The notes under the pieces were generated by a model that ran no database searches, was not told the DNA's origin, and saw only the letters and a list, made by a program, of their open reading frames with translations. A DNA stretch of 4,479 nt from a virus. Its lineage: Duplodnaviria > Heunggongvirae > Uroviricota > Caudoviricetes. The stretch lies in IMG/VR virus record IMGVR_UViG_2609460005_000001. One strand, given 5' to 3'. The position numbers and the translations under genes were made by a program. Shown here piece by piece: positions 1-4,479 of the stretch (the stretch's first letter is position 1; every line of letters starts with the position of its first letter).

Positions 1-89
1 TCTGATGGAAATGGAAGCCACGCAAGCACCTTAAAATCACCATCATACACTAAATCAGTAAGTTGGCAGCATTACCTAAACACTGCACT

Positions 90-117
90 GTGTATTCATT
101 CCAACGAGTGAATACAC
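90..117 (+). other. Near-perfect inverted repeat / RNA hairpin (12-bp stem with one G-U pair, 4-nt loop CAAC), not followed by a T-tract
   Basis: Read directly: 90-GTGTATTCATTC-101 pairs with 106-GAGTGAATACAC-117 (position i pairs with 207-i; 99T/108G is the only wobble). Downstream sequence is GGAGCAATG, so there is no U-run and it is not a canonical intrinsic terminator. Confidence 0.4.
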
Positions 118-178
118 GGAGCAATGTCGCTCGTAACTAAACAGGAGCCGACTTGTTCTGATTATTGGAAATCTTCTT

Positions 179-207
179 CGCCCTCCAGTGTGAGGGCGAT
201 TTTTTAT
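179..207 (+). terminator. Rho-independent terminator hairpin upstream of ea10 (tL2a-like position)
   Basis: GC-rich 7-bp stem CGCCCTC (179-185) / GAGGGCG (192-198), 6-nt loop CAGTGT, then GATTTTTTAT (T-run 201-206). It lies about 20 nt upstream of the ea10 start. The lambda tL2 terminator cluster is described in this part of the pL operon; exact correspondence is from memory. Confidence 0.6.
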
Positions 208-225
208 CTATGAGGATATGAATAG

Positions 226-594
226 ATGTCAAACATCAAAAAATACATCATTGATTACGACTGGAAAGCATCAATAGAAATTGAAATCGACCATGACGTA
301 ATGACAGAGGAAAAACTTCACCAGATTAATAATTTCTGGTCAGACTCTGAATACCGACTCAATAAACACGGCTCTGTATTAAATGCTGTATTAATCATGC
401 TGGCGCAACATGCTCTGCTTATAGCAATTTCAAGCGACTTAAATGCATATGGTGTTGTGTGTGAGTTCGACTGGAATGATGGAAATGGTCAGGAAGGATG
501 GCCTCCAATGGATGGTAGCGAAGGAATAAGAATTACCGATATCGATACATCAGGAATATTTGATTCAGATGATATGACTATCAAAGCCGCCTGA
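226..594 (+). CDS. ea10: Ea10 (lambda early pL-operon protein, 122 aa)
   Basis: 122-aa ORF whose translation (MSNIKKYIIDYDWKASIEIEIDHDV...) I recognise as lambda Ea10; size and position immediately upstream of cIII match lambda gene order. GAGGA at 212-216 sits 9 nt before the ATG. Confidence 0.9.
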   Translation: MSNIKKYIIDYDWKASIEIEIDHDVMTEEKLHQINNFWSDSEYRLNKHGSVLNAVLIMLAQHALLIAISSDLNAYGVVCEFDWNDGNGQEGWPPMDGSEGIRITDIDTSGIFDSDDMTIKAA

Positions 595-618
595 GCGCGG
601 CGTTACCGCATACCAATA

Positions 619-645
619 ACGCTTCACTCGAGGCGTTTTTCGTTA
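619..645 (+). terminator. Candidate intrinsic terminator between ea10 and cIII (tL2b-like position)
   Basis: Stem AACGCTTC (619-626) / GAGGCGTT (631-638) with one G-U pair, loop ACTC, then TTTCGTTAT. The T-run is short and partly inside the stem, so it is weaker than the 179-207 hairpin. It ends just before the cIII Shine-Dalgarno. Confidence 0.4.
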
Positions 646-666
646 TGTATAAATAAGGAGCACACC

Positions 667-831
667 ATGCAATATGCCATTGCAGGGTGGCCTGTTGCTG
701 GCTGCCCTTCCGAATCTTTACTTGAACGAATCACCCGTAAATTACGTGACGGATGGAAACGCCTTATCGACATACTTAATCAGCCAGGAGTCCCAAAAAA
801 TGGATCAAACACTTATGGCTATCCAGACTAA
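667..831 (+). CDS. cIII: CIII (54 aa; inhibitor of FtsH-mediated CII degradation)
   Basis: Not in the ORF track because it is under the length cutoff. ATG at 667 is preceded by a strong SD TAAGGAG (654-660). Translation [54 protein letters not shown] matches lambda CIII as I recall it. Stop TAA at 829-831. Confidence 0.9.
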   Translation: MQYAIAGWPVAGCPSESLLERITRKLRDGWKRLIDILNQPGVPKNGSNTYGYPD

Positions 832-943
832 ATTCACTATCGCCACTTTTATTGGCGATGAAAAGATGTTTCGTGAGGCCGTCGACGCTTATAAAAAATG
901 GATATTAATACTGAAACTGAGATCAAGCAAAAGCATTCACTAA
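800..943 (+). CDS. kil: Kil (47 aa; host cell-division/FtsZ inhibitor)
   Basis: ATG at 800 in frame with track ORF 674..943; translation [47 protein letters not shown] matches lambda Kil as recalled. Its start overlaps the 3' end of cIII in a different frame. The upstream 674-799 extension of the track ORF is most likely non-coding in this frame. Confidence 0.85.
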
Positions 944-1314
944 CCCCCTTTCCTGTTTTCCTAATCAGCCCGGCATTTCGCGGGCGATATTTTCACAGCT
1001 ATTTCAGGAGTTCAGCCATGAACGCTTATTACATTCAGGATCGTCTTGAGGCTCAGAGCTGGACGCGTCACTACCAGCAGATCGCCCGTGAAGAGAAAGA
1101 GGCAGAACTGGCAGACGACATGGAAAAAGGCCTGCCCCAGCACCTGTTTGAATCGCTATGCATCGATCATTTGCAACGCCACGGGGTCAGCAAAAAAGCC
1201 ATTACCCGTGCGTTCGATGACGATGTTGAGTTTCAGGAGCGCATGGCAGAACACATCCGGTACATGGTTGAAACCATTGCTCACCACCAGGTTGATATTG
1301 ATTCAGAGGTATAA
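898..1314 (+). CDS. gam: Gam (RecBCD inhibitor); long form 138 aa from 898, short GamS form from the internal ATG at 1018
   Basis: Translation [55 protein letters not shown]... is recognisably lambda Gam. The internal MNAYYIQ start at 1018 has a strong SD (AGGAG about 10 nt upstream), whereas the 898 ATG has none, consistent with the known GamL/GamS forms. Confidence 0.95.
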
Positions 1315-1319
1315 AACGG

Positions 1320-2105
1320 ATGAGTACAGCACTCGCAACGCTGGCTGGGAAGCTGGCTGAACGTGTCGGCATGGATTCTGTCGACCCACAGGAACTGATC
1401 ACCACTCTTCGCCAGACGGCATTTAAAGGTGATGCCAGCGATGCGCAGTTCATCGCATTGTTGATCGTCGCCAACCAGTACGGCCTTAATCCGTGGACGA
1501 AAGAAATTTACGCCTTCCCTGACAAGCAGAACGGCATCGTTCCGGTGGTGGGCGTTGATGGCTGGTCCCGCATCATCAATGAAAACCAGCAGTTTGATGG
1601 CATGGACTTTGAGCAGGACAATGAATCCTGCACATGCCGGATTTACCGCAAAGACCGCAATCATCCGATCTGCGTTACCGAGTGGATGGATGAATGCCGC
1701 CGCGAACCATTCAAAACCCGCGAAGGCAGAGAAATCACGGGGCCGTGGCAGTCGCATCCCAAACGGATGTTACGGCATAAAGCCATGATTCAGTGTGCCC
1801 GTCTCGCCTTCGGATTTGCTGGTATCTATGACAAGGATGAAGCCGAGCGCATTGTCGAAAATACCGCATACACTGCAGAACGTCAGCCGGAACGCGACAT
1901 CACTCCGGTTAACGATGAAACCATGCAGGAGATTAACACTCTGCTGATTGCCCTGGATAAAACATGGGATGACGACTTATTGCCGCTCTGTTCCCAGATA
2001 TTTCGCCGCGACATTCGCGCATCGTCAGAACTGACACAGGCCGAAGCAGTGAAAGCTCTTGGATTCCTGAAACAGAAAGCCACTGAGCAGAAGGTGGCAG
2101 CATGA
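1320..2105 (+). CDS. bet: Bet / Red-beta single-strand annealing recombinase (261 aa)
   Basis: 261-aa translation [44 protein letters not shown]... is lambda Bet essentially end to end. It starts 6 nt after the gam stop and its stop overlaps the exo start (ATGA at 2102-2105). Confidence 0.97.
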
Positions 2106-2782
2106 CACCGGACATTATACTGCAGCGTACCGGGATCGACGTGAGAGCTGTCGAACAGGGGGATGATGCATGGCACAAATTACGGCTCGGCGTCATCACC
2201 GCTTCAGAAGTTCACAACGTGATAGCAAAGCCCCGATCAGGAAAGAAGTGGCCTGACATGAAAATGTCCTACTTCCACACCCTGCTGGCTGAGGTTTGCA
2301 CCGGTGTGGCTCCGGAAGTTAACGCTAAAGCGCTGGCCTGGGGAAAACAGTACGAGAACGACGCCAGAACCCTGTTTGAGTTCACTTCCGGCGTAAATGT
2401 TATTGAATCCCCGATCATCTATCGCGACGAAAGTATGCGCACCGCCTGCTCTCCCGATGGTTTATGCAGTGACGGCAATGGCCTTGAGCTGAAATGCCCG
2501 TTTACCTCCCGGGATTTCATGAAGTTCCGGCTCGGTGGTTTCGAGGCCATAAAGTCGGCTTACATGGCCCAGGTGCAGTACAGCATGTGGGTGACGCGAA
2601 AAGATGCCTGGTACTTTGCCAACTATGACCCGCGTATGAAGCGTGAAGGCCTGCATTATGTCGTGGTTGAGCGGGATGAAAAGTACATGGCGAGTTTTGA
2701 CGAGATGGTGCCGGAGTTCATCGAAAAAATGGACGAGGCACTGGCTGAAATTGGTTTTGCATTTGGGGAGCAATGGCGATGA
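2102..2782 (+). CDS. exo: Exo / Red-alpha 5'-3' dsDNA exonuclease (226 aa)
   Basis: 226-aa translation [65 protein letters not shown]... is lambda exonuclease. ATGA overlap with bet indicates translational coupling. Confidence 0.97.
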
Positions 2783-2940
2783 AGCATCCTCACGATAATA
2801 TCCGGGTAGGCACGATCACTTTCGTCTACTCCGTTACAAAGCGAGGCTGGGTATTTCCCGGCCTTTCTGTTATCCGAAATCCCCTGAAAGCACAGCGGCT
2901 GGCTGAGGAGATAAATAATAAACGGGGGCTGTATGACTGA
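2779..2940 (+). CDS. orf60a-like small protein, 53 aa, apparently truncated relative to lambda orf60a
   Basis: Below the track cutoff. ATG at 2779 overlaps the exo stop (ATGA 2779-2782). Translation [53 protein letters not shown] resembles what I recall of lambda orf60a, which follows exo in the same arrangement. The stop at 2938-2940 lies inside the start of the downstream methyltransferase gene. Confidence 0.55.
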
Positions 2941-3490
2941 TTTCACCGGAAGCAATACTCCTGCCGAACATCGCGACAGCTGGCGCACACCACCAGAGAT
3001 TTTTGCTGCGCTTAATGCAGAGTTCGTTTTTCAACTTGATGCTGCCGCCAGCGAAAAAAACCGACTATGTCGGCTTTTTATCTCACAGGAGCAGAACACA
3101 TTAACCACTTCATGGCCTGAAGCAATGGGATATGCCTCTGGTTATGTCTGGTTGAATCCACCATACAGCAATATTTCCCCTTTTGTGAAAAAGGCAGCCA
3201 CTGAAAACAAATTCAGTAGTGTGGGATGTGTAATGTTATTGCCTGCTGACACATCTGTCGGATGGTTTCATGAAGCGATACAAACCGCCAGTGAGGTCAG
3301 ATTCATCACGGCAGGACGACTGGCATTTATTAACCCACTCACTGAGAAACCCGTCAGTGGAAATAATAAAGGCTCGATGCTCATTATCTGGCACCCATAC
3401 CCCCGTACACACTGCCACTTTACGACCGTTGATCGTGGAGAGTTGATGGCGTTCGGCTCAAGGATTCTTGCCCGTCGGGAGGCTGCATGA
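2933..3490 (+). CDS. Phage Dam-family DNA N6-adenine methyltransferase (185 aa), orphan with no cognate restriction enzyme in the window
   Basis: 185-aa ORF with the catalytic motif-IV tetrapeptide NPPY (in ...YVWLNPPYSNISPF...) and an N-terminal WRTPPEIFAALNAEFVFQLDAAAS segment typical of the small phage Dam family. Assignment is by motif and pattern recognition, not a search. Confidence 0.8.
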   Translation: MTDFTGSNTPAEHRDSWRTPPEIFAALNAEFVFQLDAAASEKNRLCRLFISQEQNTLTTSWPEAMGYASGYVWLNPPYSNISPFVKKAATENKFSSVGCVMLLPADTSVGWFHEAIQTASEVRFITAGRLAFINPLTEKPVSGNNKGSMLIIWHPYPRTHCHFTTVDRGELMAFGSRILARREAA

Positions 3491-3570
3491 CAACCACGGA
3501 ATGCATTTTTCTGGCAGCGGGCTTCATATTCTGTGTGCTTATGCTTGCCGACATGGGACTTGTTCAATGA
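3487..3570 (+). CDS. Candidate 27-aa hydrophobic micro-protein (MTTTECIFLAAGFIFCVLMLADMGLVQ), coupled to both neighbours
   Basis: Not in the track (too short). Its ATG at 3487-3489 overlaps the methyltransferase stop TGA at 3488-3490, and its stop TGA at 3568-3570 overlaps the ATG at 3567-3569 of the next ORF. The core IFLAAGFIFCVLML is long enough for one transmembrane helix. No independent SD was seen; support is purely structural. Confidence 0.3.
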   Translation: MTTTECIFLAAGFIFCVLMLADMGLVQ

Positions 3571-3782
3571 CACCTCAGCAGGAAAACGCCCTTCGCAGCA
3601 TTGCCCGTCAGGCTAATTCTGAAATCAAAAAAGCCAGACAGCAGTTTCCGGATAAAAACGTCGATGACATTTGCCGTAGCGTACTAAAGAAGCACCGCGA
3701 AACGGTAACGCTGATGGGATTCACACCGACTCATTTAAGCCTGGCGATCGGCATGTTAAACGGCGTCTTTAAGGAACGGTGA
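3567..3782 (+). CDS. Hypothetical protein, 71 aa from ATG 3567 (track ORF 3468..3782 begins at a TTG inside the methyltransferase gene)
   Basis: Open frame with mixed charged/helical composition: MTPQQENALRSIARQANSEIKKARQQFPDKNVDDICRSVLKKHRETVTLMGFTPTHLSLAIGMLNGVFKER. The start is ambiguous between ATG 3501 and ATG 3567; 3567 is preferred because of the ATGA coupling with the micro-ORF and because it avoids overlap with the methyltransferase. I do not recognise a family. Confidence 0.5.
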   Translation: MTPQQENALRSIARQANSEIKKARQQFPDKNVDDICRSVLKKHRETVTLMGFTPTHLSLAIGMLNGVFKER

Positions 3783-3803
3783 ACATGAAAAGCAAAATCA
3801 TCA

Positions 3804-3826
3804 GGGAGCTACAGGCTCCTTTTTTA
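3804..3826 (+). terminator. Candidate intrinsic terminator between the 71-aa ORF and the TraR-like gene
   Basis: Stem GGGAGC (3804-3809) / GCTCCT (3815-3820) with a terminal G-U pair, loop TACAG, immediately followed by TTTTTTAT (3821-3828). Short stem but a clean T-tract. Confidence 0.45.
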
Positions 3827-3880
3827 TTGTTCGCATTCATCCTCAAGCGTATTAACCAACAATTCAGGGATTAATGGAAG

Positions 3881-4099
3881 ATGGCAGACATCATTGATTC
3901 AGCATCAGAAATCGAAGAATTACAGCGCAATACAGCAATAAAAATGCGTCGTCTGAACCACCAGGCTATATCTGCCACTCATTGTTGTAAGTGTGGCGAT
4001 CCCATAGATGAACGAAGACGCCTGGCCGTTCAGGGTTGTCGGACTTGTGCAAGTTGCCAGGAGGAGATCGAACTTAAGAACAAACAATGGGGATTGTGA
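3881..4099 (+). CDS. TraR/DksA-family C4 zinc-finger protein (72 aa; phage Orf73-like RNA polymerase-binding regulator)
   Basis: Translation contains C35-x2-C38-x17-C56-x2-C59 (…THCCKCGDPIDERRRLAVQGCRTCASCQEE…), the spacing characteristic of the TraR/DksA C4 zinc finger, and the length matches TraR-like proteins of plasmids and lambdoid phages. The ATG is closely preceded by GGAAG. Confidence 0.8.
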   Translation: MADIIDSASEIEELQRNTAIKMRRLNHQAISATHCCKCGDPIDERRRLAVQGCRTCASCQEEIELKNKQWGL

Positions 4100-4146
4100 T
4101 GGCCTCAAAGCAGCAAATTTCAACATCGTCCAACTGAGGTGTAAAA

Positions 4147-4425
4147 ATGTTCAGAATCATTTTTCCTAACACCTGGTACGTCGACCACCACGGCACTCCC
4201 TGCAAAATCCTGCGTTCTACCCACAACAAAGTTCACTACATCCGAAAAGGCAGAACATGTATCGCCAGCATGTTCCGCTTTAATCATGACTTTGAACCTG
4301 TGAATAAAGCTGATGCAGATCGGATAGCAGAAGAGATCGAAACGGCAGAACACATTAAGAAGTTACGTGACATGCGTTCAAAAAGCAGAGGTAACCATGG
4401 AATCATACAGCCTCACACTCGATGA
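4147..4425 (+). CDS. Hypothetical protein, 92 aa, immediately upstream of and overlapping the excisionase start
   Basis: ORF with a good SD (GAGGTG 4134-4139, 7-nt spacer). The N-terminal half is rich in His/Cys/aromatic residues (…VDHHGTPCKILRSTHNKVHYIRKGRTCIASMF…) and the C-terminal half is acidic/basic and helical. It occupies the position held by ea-type accessory genes upstream of xis in lambdoid phages. No family recognised. Confidence 0.55.
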   Translation: MFRIIFPNTWYVDHHGTPCKILRSTHNKVHYIRKGRTCIASMFRFNHDFEPVNKADADRIAEEIETAEHIKKLRDMRSKSRGNHGIIQPHTR

Positions 4426-4479
4426 GGCCTGTCAGTTTCTTAAGATATCCAGACCAACCGCCACCAACTGGATACGAAC
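4397..4479 (+). CDS. xis: Excisionase / AlpA-family helix-turn-helix DNA-binding protein (Xis), 5' partial, continues past the window end
   Basis: ATG at 4397 opens MESYSLTLDEACQFLKISRPTATNWIR…, an N-terminus I recognise as the P22-type/AlpA-like excisionase family. The frame is still open at the window end. Its position at the distal end of the pL operon fits an xis-int module following. Confidence 0.65.
   Translation, partial: MESYSLTLDEACQFLKISRPTATNWIR

Follow-up and report, generated by a model that had tools for sequence, protein, structure and literature searches.

A Dam-family methyltransferase gene in the orf63 position of a lambda-like exo-xis region, exchanged as a single-gene cassette between start and stop codon

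Organization of the locus

The window, i.e. the whole stretch of 4,479 nucleotides that was analysed (Caudoviricetes, IMG/VR record IMGVR_UViG_2609460005_000001), contains a lambda-type pL-operon segment from ea10 to the body of an orf60a-like gene, followed by a predicted adenine methyltransferase gene (dam), a small hydrophobic ORF, an orf61-like gene and an orf73-type gene (Table 1).

Table 1. Features of the methyltransferase locus, with window coordinates
Feature	Position	Strand	Evidence and remarks
Left homology arm, a stretch of lambda-type pL operon (ea10, cIII, kil, gam, bet, exo, orf60a body) up to and including the shared ATG	77..2935	+	97.9% to lambda; 97.3-98.6% to 434, 21, ev243, SfI and VT2-Sakai
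exo, lambda exonuclease, 226 aa	2102..2782	+	PF09588 YqaJ, 103 bits; collinear with lambda exo
orf60a-like gene (DUF1317), 53 aa, core intact	2779..2940	+	PF07026, 114.1 bits (cutoff 22.3), profile positions 1-50 of 60; PHROG 1998; ATGA overlap with exo
G-run, Shine-Dalgarno-like element for the slot gene	2924..2928	+	1-nt length polymorphism: CGAGGGG in lambda, CGGGGG in the window (gapped alignment)
Shared start codon and left junction	2933..2935	+	ATG of orf63 (lambda, 434, 21, VT2-Sakai), dam (window), 250-aa gene (SfI) and 414-aa PAPS-reductase-like gene (L013, L126)
dam, phage N6-adenine DNA methyltransferase (predicted), 185 aa	2933..3490	+	PF05869, TIGR01712; NPPY at residues 75-78
Cassette-specific DNA, 551 bp, without lambda counterpart	2936..3486	+	No alignment to lambda, 434, 21, ev243 or VT2-Sakai; 100% to PhiR30_1
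Right junction ATGA	3487..3490	+	TGA shared as stop codon by dam (window) and orf63 (lambda-type loci); ATG opens the next small ORF
Right homology arm (27-aa ORF, orf61-like gene, most of the orf73-type gene)	3487..4076	+	97.0% to lambda, 97.5% to 434, 98.8% to ev243; 95-100% per 100-nt bin
27-aa hydrophobic predicted ORF (MTTTECIFLAAGFIFCVLMLADMGLVQ), ATGA overlap at each end	3487..3570	+	Intact in 98/98 loci, identical in 88 (among the matches listed)
orf61-like gene, 71 aa	3567..3782	+	PHROG 303; annotated orf61-like in 434, 21 and PhiR30_1
orf73-type TraR/DksA zinc-finger gene, 72 aa	3881..4099	+	PF01258, 35.2 bits

BLAST comparison with lambda (NC_001416) gave 97.9% identity for positions 77-2935, confirming that ea10 through exo is lambda-like as proposed in the initial annotation of the sequence, with a collapse directly behind the final G of the start codon at 2933-2935. 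In bins of 100 nt the identity to lambda was 96-100% up to position 2900 and 22-43% across 2901-3500. Lambda-type sequence was back at 3487 and continued to about 4076 with 97% identity, by BLAST as well as by bins. Base-level alignment placed the final base common to the window, lambda, 434, 21, ev243 and VT2-Sakai at 2935, the third base of the ATG, and the right break at 3486/3487, with homology to lambda restarting at the shared TGA (3488-3490). The two-piece match pattern was also found by BLAST against 434, 21, ev243 and VT2-Sakai, and the near-identity is lost and regained abruptly on both sides, at 2935/2936 and 3486/3487, in the comparison with all five phages. A drop in identity between 2920 and 2940 had been predicted, and the break falls in this interval; continuation of lambda identity past 2940 was sought and does not occur (22-43% in the bins of 2901-3500).

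The DNA between the two breaks (2936-3486, 551 bp) stands for 185 bp of lambda consisting of the orf60a tail and the body of orf63. Lambda carries no methyltransferase here, as had been stated, and has orf63 in place; the same gene fills the slot in 434, 21, ev243 and VT2-Sakai, while dam fills it in phage PhiR30_1. The event is a 551-bp single-gene swap of orf63 for dam, flush from start codon to stop codon.

A second, separate junction was observed at about 4076-4100, where the window departs from lambda (ea22 onward) into a DUF4222-xis-int module of the SfI/ev243 type.

The orf60a-like frame

The protein encoded by the orf60a-like frame has a RefSeq entry (WP_000682319.1, 'DUF1317 family protein'). 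Its start was described earlier as an ATGA overlap on exo, and its end as a stop after 53 codons, 5 nt beyond the start codon of a Dam-family gene. These descriptions hold at base level: the ATG (2779-2781) overlaps the TGA of exo (2780-2782), the frame consists of 53 codons plus the stop (2779-2940), and the stop codon (2938-2940) ends 5 nt past the ATG of dam at 2933. The lambda C-terminus of a full-length, 60-aa Orf60a (...KRGAVCTKHLLLS) was not found in the window, where the tail reads ...KRGLYD before the stop; these last residues (...KRG-LYD) come from the G-run and from dam codons 1-3. Occurrence of the KRGLYD tail without a downstream methyltransferase was looked for as well, and among the matches listed the tail is present only where a methyltransferase follows.

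The G-run upstream of the shared ATG lies where a ribosome-binding site for orf63 is annotated in the records of 434 and 21. Among the matches listed it reads GGGG or GGGGG in Dam-type loci and GGGAG, AGGGG or GGAGG in others. For the Dam-type contigs among the matches listed, 12 of 15 have GGGG after the AAACG anchor, as the window does, and encode the 53-aa form, and the other three have GGGGG and encode 52 aa. In the two further alleles described below (SfI type and PAPS type), orf60a also stops at the ATGA after 52 aa, among the matches listed. Since the 3' end of orf60a overlaps the slot gene, the tail varies with the cargo and with the length of the slippery G-run; the shortening is a passive by-product, and the gene is not damaged.

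The predicted methyltransferase

The Dam protein matched PF05869 with 190.5 bits (cutoff 28.1) over profile positions 1-168 of 169, and the equivalog TIGR01712 (phage_N6A_met) with 165.6 bits (cutoff 97.05) over positions 3-165 of 165. The amino-methyltransferase motif (D/N)PP(Y/F/W) is present as NPPY (WLNPPYS), aligned with the NPPY of VT2-Sakai Dam and kept in the orthologue of Enterobacter phage ENT1. VT2-Sakai Dam (BAA94133.1) showed 47% identity over 178 aa (E = 2e-55), and homologues from T1-like phages showed 42-45%. The ENT1 orthologue has 76% amino-acid identity with a dN of 0.17; synonymous sites are saturated in this comparison, so only dN and the excess of amino-acid over nucleotide identity are quotable. 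The gene is under purifying selection relative to ENT1 and is intact in 17 of 19 loci. Search for a solved structure by sequence gave no meaningful match (best E = 0.28, CutA).

Among the relatives, M.EcoVT2Dam and M.EcoT1Dam modify GATC, and off-target activity is seen in a relative of T1 Dam (PMC6602927, PMC4996451). Absence of transcription in a lysogen has been described for prophage Dam homologues (PMC4659465), and the dam gene studied here would be silent in a repressed lysogen. M.EcoGIX was considered as a possible further relative, a prophage-borne adenine methylase of relaxed specificity, and was rejected, since it is carried by a plasmid and acts specifically on single-stranded DNA (PMC7736820). 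The window enzyme would most likely methylate adenine in GATC, or in a relaxed version of this site, on replicating phage DNA during early lytic growth; this specificity is an extrapolation from relatives of no more than 42-47% identity. Such methylation would exceed that by the host Dam in completeness, with some protection from methylation-sensitive restriction. GATC is already methylated by E. coli itself.

Alleles of the orf63 position

For the analysis of the slot, 120 viral contigs of IMG/VR anchored on the orf60a body were surveyed; this is a non-random sample and its counts apply among the matches listed. With that scope, the slot of these contigs was filled by orf63 in 86 cases, which makes it the majority allele, by dam in 15, by a 250-aa gene of the SfI type in 11 and by a 414-aa PAPS-reductase-like gene in two. 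These are four unrelated genes with one SD-ATG, all alleles among the matches listed starting at the same GTATG; the start of SfI gp34 (position 4357 of L005), for example, corresponds to window position 2933. The right junction depends on the allele and is found at 3487 for Dam and orf63, at about 3585 for the SfI type and at about 3661 for the PAPS type. Downstream, the ATGA of the right junction is present in 98 of 98 loci of the survey and the orf61-like gene is intact at 71 aa in 95 of them, both among the matches listed. The 27-aa ORF that lies between gave no family match in Pfam and PHROG profile searches.

The only match of the SfI-type 250-aa protein was PHROG 887, labelled 'queuine tRNA-ribosyltransferase' (putative TGT-like). 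Pfam and NCBIfam gave nothing at the thresholds used, apart from one sub-cutoff match to DUF7736 (E = 0.23), and a search of solved structures by sequence gave no match. By annotation, three of the four slot alleles are nucleic-acid-modifying, namely Dam, the TGT/DpdA-like 250-aa protein and the PAPS-reductase/DndC-like 414-aa protein (putative). A C5-methylase-Dam fusion is found in the equivalent place in Enterobacter phages. The left flank of one contig (L085) looked unrelated at first and was examined as a candidate alternative recombination module; it results from an internal deletion that brought ea10 (window 559) next to orf60a (window 2871).

Distribution and source of the window

The question whether other prophages combine the truncated orf60a with the methyltransferase could be answered positively: the arrangement is present in 244 of 5426 complete E. 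coli genomes (~4.5%), with at least 99% identity at the junction, and also in phage PhiR30_1. The full-length cassette was found in E. coli genomes solely in this slot. The flanks themselves have matches at about 4800 places in E. coli. In BL21 and some 68 further genomes, partial matches (query 176-536) beside replication protein P or ren suggested a second genomic address for the cassette, which was rejected: these matches are dam pseudogenes that lost their 5' part by deletion and lie in this very slot in DLP12-type remnants.

Position 76/77 of the window is adjoined by IS1, and the 100%-identical source lacks pL, N and cI and is a truncated prophage remnant beside IS1. The window represents a decayed E. 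coli prophage, from which the promoter-proximal part of the operon is gone next to IS1. Because of this removal, the window copy of dam is probably an unexpressed fossil.

The Escherichia phage PhiR30_1 (PV340558) matched window positions 937-4479 in one piece with 98.4% identity, and the cassette with 100%. Its annotation gives orf60a, a DNA N-6-adenine methyltransferase and orf61; the RefSeq proteins WP_000682319.1 and WP_000129285.1 represent the same arrangement. The deposited PhiR30_1 record is a complete phage genome (host E. coli C), in contrast to the truncated remnant from which the window originates. One deposited phage genome and hundreds of RefSeq E. coli genomes already carry the arrangement in annotated form.

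Mode of exchange and predicted expression

Taken as a whole, dam very probably holds the orf63 slot as a flush operon cassette that is swapped by homologous recombination in conserved flanks. Among the matches listed, the mean pairwise divergence of the dam cassette is 0.44% (18 copies), and that of the right flank of dam carriers is 2.0%, with a maximum of 4.3%. Some dam loci among the matches listed have flanks nearest or identical to those of orf63-type loci, on the left in L120, L023 and L098 and on the right in L009 and L024, a flank-incongruence test that rests on few differences in a non-random IMG/VR sample. Among the matches listed, dam is found as one cassette on differing flank haplotypes, and one type of flank can carry alternative cassettes. 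A near-invariant cassette on varied flanks fits exchange by homologous recombination in conserved flanks. No foreign compositional signature was detected, with 48.5% GC in the cassette and 48.8% in the flanks.

The G-run ribosome-binding site and the ATG are part of the conserved left flank, within the 3' end of orf60a, and the ATGA overlap is part of the conserved right flank. Cassettes would move among lambdoid phages and prophages via these flanks, which are ~97-99% identical (exo/orf60a on the left, orf61/orf73 on the right), and the Red functions encoded directly upstream would probably promote the exchange. The flush junctions would be the outcome of selection for replacements that are expressed and non-polar, and of repeated exchange that sharpens the boundaries. 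A slot gene would be transcribed with the N-antiterminated early operon from pL and, judging from the sequence and the annotations of 434 and 21, would be translated from the shared initiation site.

The initial annotation had assumed one junction at about 2935 that replaced everything distal to orf60a with a foreign cassette. Lambda identity does stop at 2935, and the window is unlike lambda at its far end (DUF4222, xis-like), but identity is regained at 3487 for about 590 bp at 97%, the match is in two pieces against 434, 21, ev243 and VT2-Sakai too, and the loss at ~4076-4100 is a separate junction common to ev243 and SfI, which makes this model very improbable. What stands of it is a genuine mosaic junction at 2935/2936, where the 3' end of the orf60a frame meets a gene that lambda lacks; the distal operon itself was kept, with lambda sequence (orf61 region and orf73-type gene) from 3487. 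Likewise, 'non-lambda cargo' is right in that the gene is absent from lambda but is overstated, since Dam is found in Enterobacter lambdoid phages and a paralogue in Stx phages. That the junction is an assembly or chimera artefact is scarcely conceivable with an identical junction in 244 complete genomes from unrelated studies, at least 15 IMG/VR contigs and one phage isolate.

The 53-codon orf60a could also be read as a frameshifted pseudogene, and the junction as the decay of a dying prophage rather than a selected arrangement. The window does come from a decayed prophage bounded by IS elements, the G-run just 5' of the stop differs from lambda by 1 nt, and BL21-type DLP12 has a truncated dam pseudogene in the equivalent slot. 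This reading is nevertheless improbable: the 53-aa form recurs in 244 genomes and in PhiR30_1, an isolated phage, the part matched by DUF1317 profile positions 1-50 (114 bits) is intact, either G-run length leads to a stop 1-2 codons from the ATG (52 or 53 aa), and orf60a ends at the ATGA (52 aa) with the SfI-type and PAPS-type alleles too. A 'moron' model, in which dam would be an autonomous insertion between lambda genes, equipped with a promoter and terminator of its own and expressed from the prophage, is again quite improbable. The gene is accessory, non-essential and absent from lambda, and orphan methyltransferases are often called morons or auxiliary genes. However, orf63 is missing and not displaced, so dam is a replacement and not an insertion, and it uses the pre-existing SD-ATG and TGA of orf63. 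A consensus-based scan found no promoter-like site on the + strand in 2700-3600, neither 5' of dam nor within it, and promoter-like counts equalled those of shuffles; between dam and the next ORF there is no terminator (ATGA overlap), terminator-like matches being short stems within coding sequence only. The prophage Dam homologue reported as untranscribed in a lysogen (PMC4659465), not necessarily the same protein as the window Dam, also argues against prophage expression.

The swap of a flush cassette in conserved flanks remains the preferred explanation, and within it dam could be as old in the slot as orf63, because Enterobacter phages carry dam beside an orf61-like gene without orf60a or the 27-aa ORF.

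Comparison with known phage systems

The exo-xis region is reportedly a subject of work in the Wegrzyn and Donaldson laboratories. As described for lambda and Stx phages (orf60a-orf63-orf61-orf73-ea22; PMC8614690, PMC6213356, PMC5575149), this region has the same place in the pL operon directly after exo, and the window shares its orf60a body and its orf61-like and orf73-like genes, with 95-100% nucleotide identity to lambda and 434; orf73 is also named as a member of the conserved exo-xis block (PMC8614690). The window differs by carrying Dam instead of orf63 and by the replacement of ea22 and beyond with the SfI/ev243-type DUF4222-xis-int module. No methyltransferase allele is mentioned in the exo-xis papers examined, where the region is described as a conserved block, and literature searches on such an allele and on PF05869 gave nothing of relevance.

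The predicted enzyme belongs to the same PF05869/TIGR01712 family of small orphan phage enzymes as M.EcoVT2Dam (VT2-Sakai/933W), M.EcoT1Dam and HP1 Dam, and NPPY is common to the window Dam and VT2-Sakai Dam. The address is different: VT2-Sakai Dam is encoded in the pR operon as ninB-dam-ninE, whereas the window Dam lies in the exo-xis slot of the pL operon. A 47%-identical paralogue is found in the nin region of Stx phages, and the same Dam gene is located between exo-like and orf61-like genes in Enterobacter lambdoid phages.

Junctions of lambdoid phages at gene boundaries were reportedly recognized by Juhala, Hendrix and colleagues. In homology-driven mosaicism of lambdoid phages (Martinsohn et al. 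2008, PMC2327257; De Paepe et al. 2014, PMC3945230) there is the same sharp fall at a gene boundary, from ~98% identity to an absence of homology, with conserved flanks on both sides, one cassette on different backgrounds and the Red genes adjacent. Nothing essential differs here; what stands out is that four unrelated genes share the SD-ATG as left edge while their right edges differ. The case is ordinary lambdoid mosaicism and a clean textbook example of it.

Implications

The exo-xis 'conserved block' is not invariant, as about a quarter of the sampled lambdoid contigs, among the matches listed, are without orf63 in the slot. Studies in which orf63 is taken to be a conserved pro-lytic factor or a drug target are affected by this variability. 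The alternative occupants are mostly of the DNA-modification type, which hints at an anti-restriction hotspot. A further and rather doubtful suggestion is that the orf63 position serves specifically as an 'expression socket' into which DNA-modification or counter-restriction genes can be swapped, with its conserved SD-ATG in the orf60a end and immediate-early, N-antiterminated expression. If this were true, orf63 itself might act in the host-defence arena, and the slot could be mined for new anti-restriction genes.

Layout of the operon and its host context

The window carries a lambdoid early-left (pL) operon, with its + strand reading in the direction of transcription. The chromosome of E. 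coli SW07164 (3682059-3686537) is 100% identical to it. In this strain the end of an IS1 transposase gene falls at window 76/77, and positions 1-76 are an IS1 terminus with tens of thousands of matches across E. coli genomes. The SW07164 prophage lacks the pL promoter, N, ral and the immunity regions. Since ISKpn26, IS3 and pieces of phage genes are found upstream of IS1, where N, pL and the immunity region would be expected, this copy of the operon is part of a decayed prophage remnant.

Features of the window (positions in window coordinates)
Feature	Position	Strand
ea10	226-594	+
cIII	667-831	+
kil	800-943	+
gam	898 or 1018-1314	+
bet	1320-2105	+
exo	2102-2782	+
orf60a-like frame (DUF1317)	2779-2940	+
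Dam-family methyltransferase	2933-3490	+
Hydrophobic ORF, 27 aa	3487-3570	+
orf61-like gene, 71 aa	3567-3782	+
TraR/DksA zinc-finger gene (orf73-type)	3881-4099	+
DUF4222 gene	4147-4425	+
Excisionase-like frame, start only	from 4397	+

Junctions with lambda

BLAST against lambda (NC_001416) gave 97.9% identity over 77-2935, in agreement with the near-identity from ea10 through exo described in the initial annotation. In 100-nt bins, identity to lambda was 96-100% up to 2900, 22-43% at 2901-3500 and 95-100% at 3501-4000. Gapped alignment with lambda, 434, 21, ev243, VT2-Sakai, SfI and PhiR30_1 (an isolated Escherichia phage with the identical dam arrangement) placed the last common base at 2935, within the predicted 2920-2940. 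This base is the G of ATG 2933-2935, the start of dam in the window and of orf63 in lambda (record position 31196). The description of the orf60a-like frame was also confirmed: it overlaps exo by ATGA (2779-2782) and stops after 53 codons (2938-2940), 5 nt past the methyltransferase ATG, while lambda, with orf63 at the equivalent ATG, has no methyltransferase here.

The proposed recombination junction thus corresponds to a real break, but not to a replacement of the distal operon, as had been claimed. Lambda-type sequence is back from 3487 to ~4076 with 97% identity (BLAST), and the same two-piece match was obtained with 434, 21, ev243 and VT2-Sakai. At base level, homology restarts at ATGA 3487-3490, of which the TGA is the stop of dam in the window and of orf63 in lambda-type phages. 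The break therefore bounds a cassette of 551 bp (2936-3486), standing for 185 bp of lambda. Because homology stops at the one ATG and restarts at the ATGA, the difference is one coding sequence exchanged for another with start and stop codons as borders, an ordinary case of lambdoid mosaicism with its breaks at gene boundaries.

A second junction, independent of those of dam, lies at ~4076-4100, towards the end of the orf73-type zinc-finger gene, where lambda, 434 and VT2-Sakai part from the window and lambda runs into ea22. Past this point the window tracks ev243, SfI and PhiR30_1, with DUF4222, an excisionase-like gene and integrase; this DUF4222-xis-int module is located at thrW-proA in strain SF-468.

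Lambda orf60a overlaps the orf63 start with its final 8 sense codons; with dam in this slot, between the orf60a body and the orf61-like gene, the frame runs into TGA almost immediately. The G-run 2924-2928 upstream of the ATG lacks one base relative to lambda and varies in length among dam carriers: among the matches listed, 12 dam contigs with the window length have the tail ...KRGLYD* (53 aa), and three with one extra G have ...KRGAV* (52 aa). Among the same matches, orf60a of 52 aa stopping at ATGA is also found with the SfI-type and PAPS-type alleles. The window frame keeps DUF1317 profile positions 1-50 of 60 intact (114 bits), and the short orf60a appears to be a by-product of the overlap with the slot gene, not a decayed gene.

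Distribution and exchange of the dam cassette

The same arrangement recurs in other prophages: the full-length cassette was found in 244 of 5426 complete E. coli genomes, all 244 carrying both junctions. About 68 further genomes, including BL21, have a 5'-truncated dam pseudogene in the slot of a DLP12-type remnant at argU. In these cryptic prophages, the DLP12 of B strains (BL21, L132 3503-3871) included, a deletion fused dam to a ren or P remnant, and the orf61-like protein downstream is identical to that of the window (WP_000188870.1). PGAP labels the orf60a-like and dam products 'DUF1317 family protein' (WP_000682319.1) and 'phage N-6-adenine-methyltransferase' (WP_000129285.1), and the PhiR30_1 record already annotates orf60a, the methyltransferase and orf61. 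The arrangement is deposited, annotated and common. Papers on the exo-xis region present orf60a-orf63-orf61-orf73-ea22 as a conserved block, with pro-lytic phenotypes for orf60a, orf63 and orf61 (PMC8614690, PMC6213356, PMC5575149); no mention of a methyltransferase allele was found in the exo-xis literature.

The nearest diverged copies of the cassette occur in Enterobacter lambdoid phages, with about 70% nucleotide identity over the full 551 bp. The ENT1 dam is a stand-alone gene of 183 aa (MTDY...ARREAA*) with 76% protein identity to the window Dam, flanked on one side by an exo-like gene and two small ORFs, on the other by orf61-like and then orf73-like genes, and overlapping its neighbours by ATGA at either end. 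CobraSix gp41 (L008 2625-4538), also downstream of exo, is a 637-aa protein in which a C5-cytosine methylase (PF00145) is fused to a Dam domain, the latter forming its C-terminal third with DNA about 70% identical to the cassette. These placements indicate that dam is a regular occupant of the exo-downstream neighbourhood across the wider lambdoid pool.

Mean pairwise divergence of the cassette is 0.44% (n=18), against typically 1-2% for left flanks and a mean of 2.0% (maximum 4.3%) for the right flank of dam carriers. For three dam loci (L120, L023, L098) the nearest neighbour of the left flank is an orf63-type locus, and for two (L009, L024) the right flank is identical to one. GC comparison of cassette (48.5%) and flanks (48.8%) gave no compositional signature. 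This pattern is the one expected of a young, near-invariant cassette moved among backgrounds by crossovers in conserved flanks. Recurrent exchange is well supported by these comparisons and, given the non-random sample and few differences, not proven; the swap may have been dam for orf63 or orf63 for dam. In one dam-carrying IMG/VR locus (L085) an internal deletion joins ea10 (window 559) to the 3' part of orf60a (window 2871), taking out cIII, kil, gam, bet and exo.

Dam enzyme and its expression

The window Dam matches PF05869 (190.5 bits) and the TIGR01712 equivalog (165.6 bits), with an NPPY motif at residues 75-78. Over its full length it shares 47% identity (E = 2e-55) with the Dam of VT2-Sakai, whose gene sits between ninB and ninE and whose record describes it as similar to HP1 Orf13 and T1 M.T1; homologues in T1-like phages show 42-45% identity. 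GATC is modified by M.EcoVT2Dam and M.EcoT1Dam, and a T1 Dam relative has off-target activity (PMC6602927, PMC4996451). Of the 19 loci surveyed, 17 keep dam intact, and with dN = 0.17 and saturated synonymous sites towards ENT1 the gene is under purifying selection.

A consensus-based scan of 2700-3600 revealed no + strand promoter-like site inside the cassette or ahead of it, nor is there a terminator between dam and the next ORF. A prophage Dam homologue was untranscribed in a lysogen (PMC4659465). On these grounds dam would be expressed immediate-early from pL upon induction or infection, translated from the SD-ATG common to the slot genes, and would methylate adenine, on replicating phage DNA, at GATC or a relaxed form of that site. 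Any benefit is conjectural: fuller methylation than by host Dam, or escape from methylation-sensitive restriction. In the window's own host dam is probably silent, as the promoter-proximal operon is gone.

Small genes downstream of the slot

The 27-aa ORF (MTTTECIFLAAGFIFCVLMLADMGLVQ) has an ATGA overlap at each end; among the matches listed, 98 of 98 loci keep it intact and 88 have the identical sequence. It lacks annotation in lambda and RefSeq E. coli and falls, in another frame, within what lambda's record annotates as the 5' part of orf61. Its product could be a genuine small membrane peptide, the loci being too alike in DNA to tell. Lambda's orf61 (L001 record 30839-31024) is itself a frameshifted form of the 71-aa gene: one additional base at window 3626/3627 cuts the product read from the conserved ATG to 29 aa. 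Among the matches listed, 95 of 98 loci retain the whole 71-aa frame, the frameshift occurring only in lambda and two lambda-identical contigs (L046, L112). This agrees with the modelling of lambda Orf61 as unstructured and of Stx-phage Orf61 as a three-helix fold (PMC8614690).

Alleles of the slot

Anchoring on the conserved orf60a body (GCTGAGGMGATAAATAATAAACG) gave at least 120 IMG/VR contigs.

Slot alleles among the matches listed
Allele	Contigs	Basis
orf63 type (about 201 nt)	at least 86	DUF1382
dam type (565-567 nt)	at least 15	PF05869
250-aa gene of phage SfI (gp34)	at least 11	PHROG 887 'queuine tRNA-ribosyltransferase', E = 1e-98
414-aa PAPS-reductase-domain gene	at least 2	PF01507, E = 7e-21; PHROG 424
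Unclassifiable, contigs truncated	at least 6	

Among these matches, all four genes begin at a common GTATG behind a GGRG-type Shine-Dalgarno, which the 434 and 21 records annotate as the orf63 ribosome-binding site. The right junction varies with the allele: with orf63 and dam it is at 3487, while that of the SfI type lies near 3585 and that of the PAPS type near 3661. The right-boundary ATGA is kept in 98 of 98 listed loci with the right anchor. In L013 and L126 the 414-aa gene, which also has a weak QueC match, starts at the common ATG and heads a 2.58-kb insert that replaces the 27-aa ORF together with the opening 94 nt (about 31 codons) of the orf61-like gene. The window Dam, in its N-terminal part, is matched by one PHROG family of that kind, 33262 ('PAPS reductase'), which implies that PAPS-reductase-Dam fusion proteins are present in phages.

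The 250-aa allele is found in SfI (L005 4357-5109), L065 and at least ten other IMG/VR loci. RefSeq gives it the same label as PHROG 887, and sequence searches of Pfam, NCBIfam and PDB returned no match supporting that label. Should it prove to be a DpdA-like DNA transglycosylase, E. coli and Shigella lambdoid prophages would carry in it a gene for 7-deazaguanine DNA modification. The only mildly new angle is the single SD-ATG common to four unrelated slot genes, three of them annotated as nucleic-acid-modifying enzymes; on this basis the slot could, though this is rather doubtful, be an anti-restriction 'socket'.
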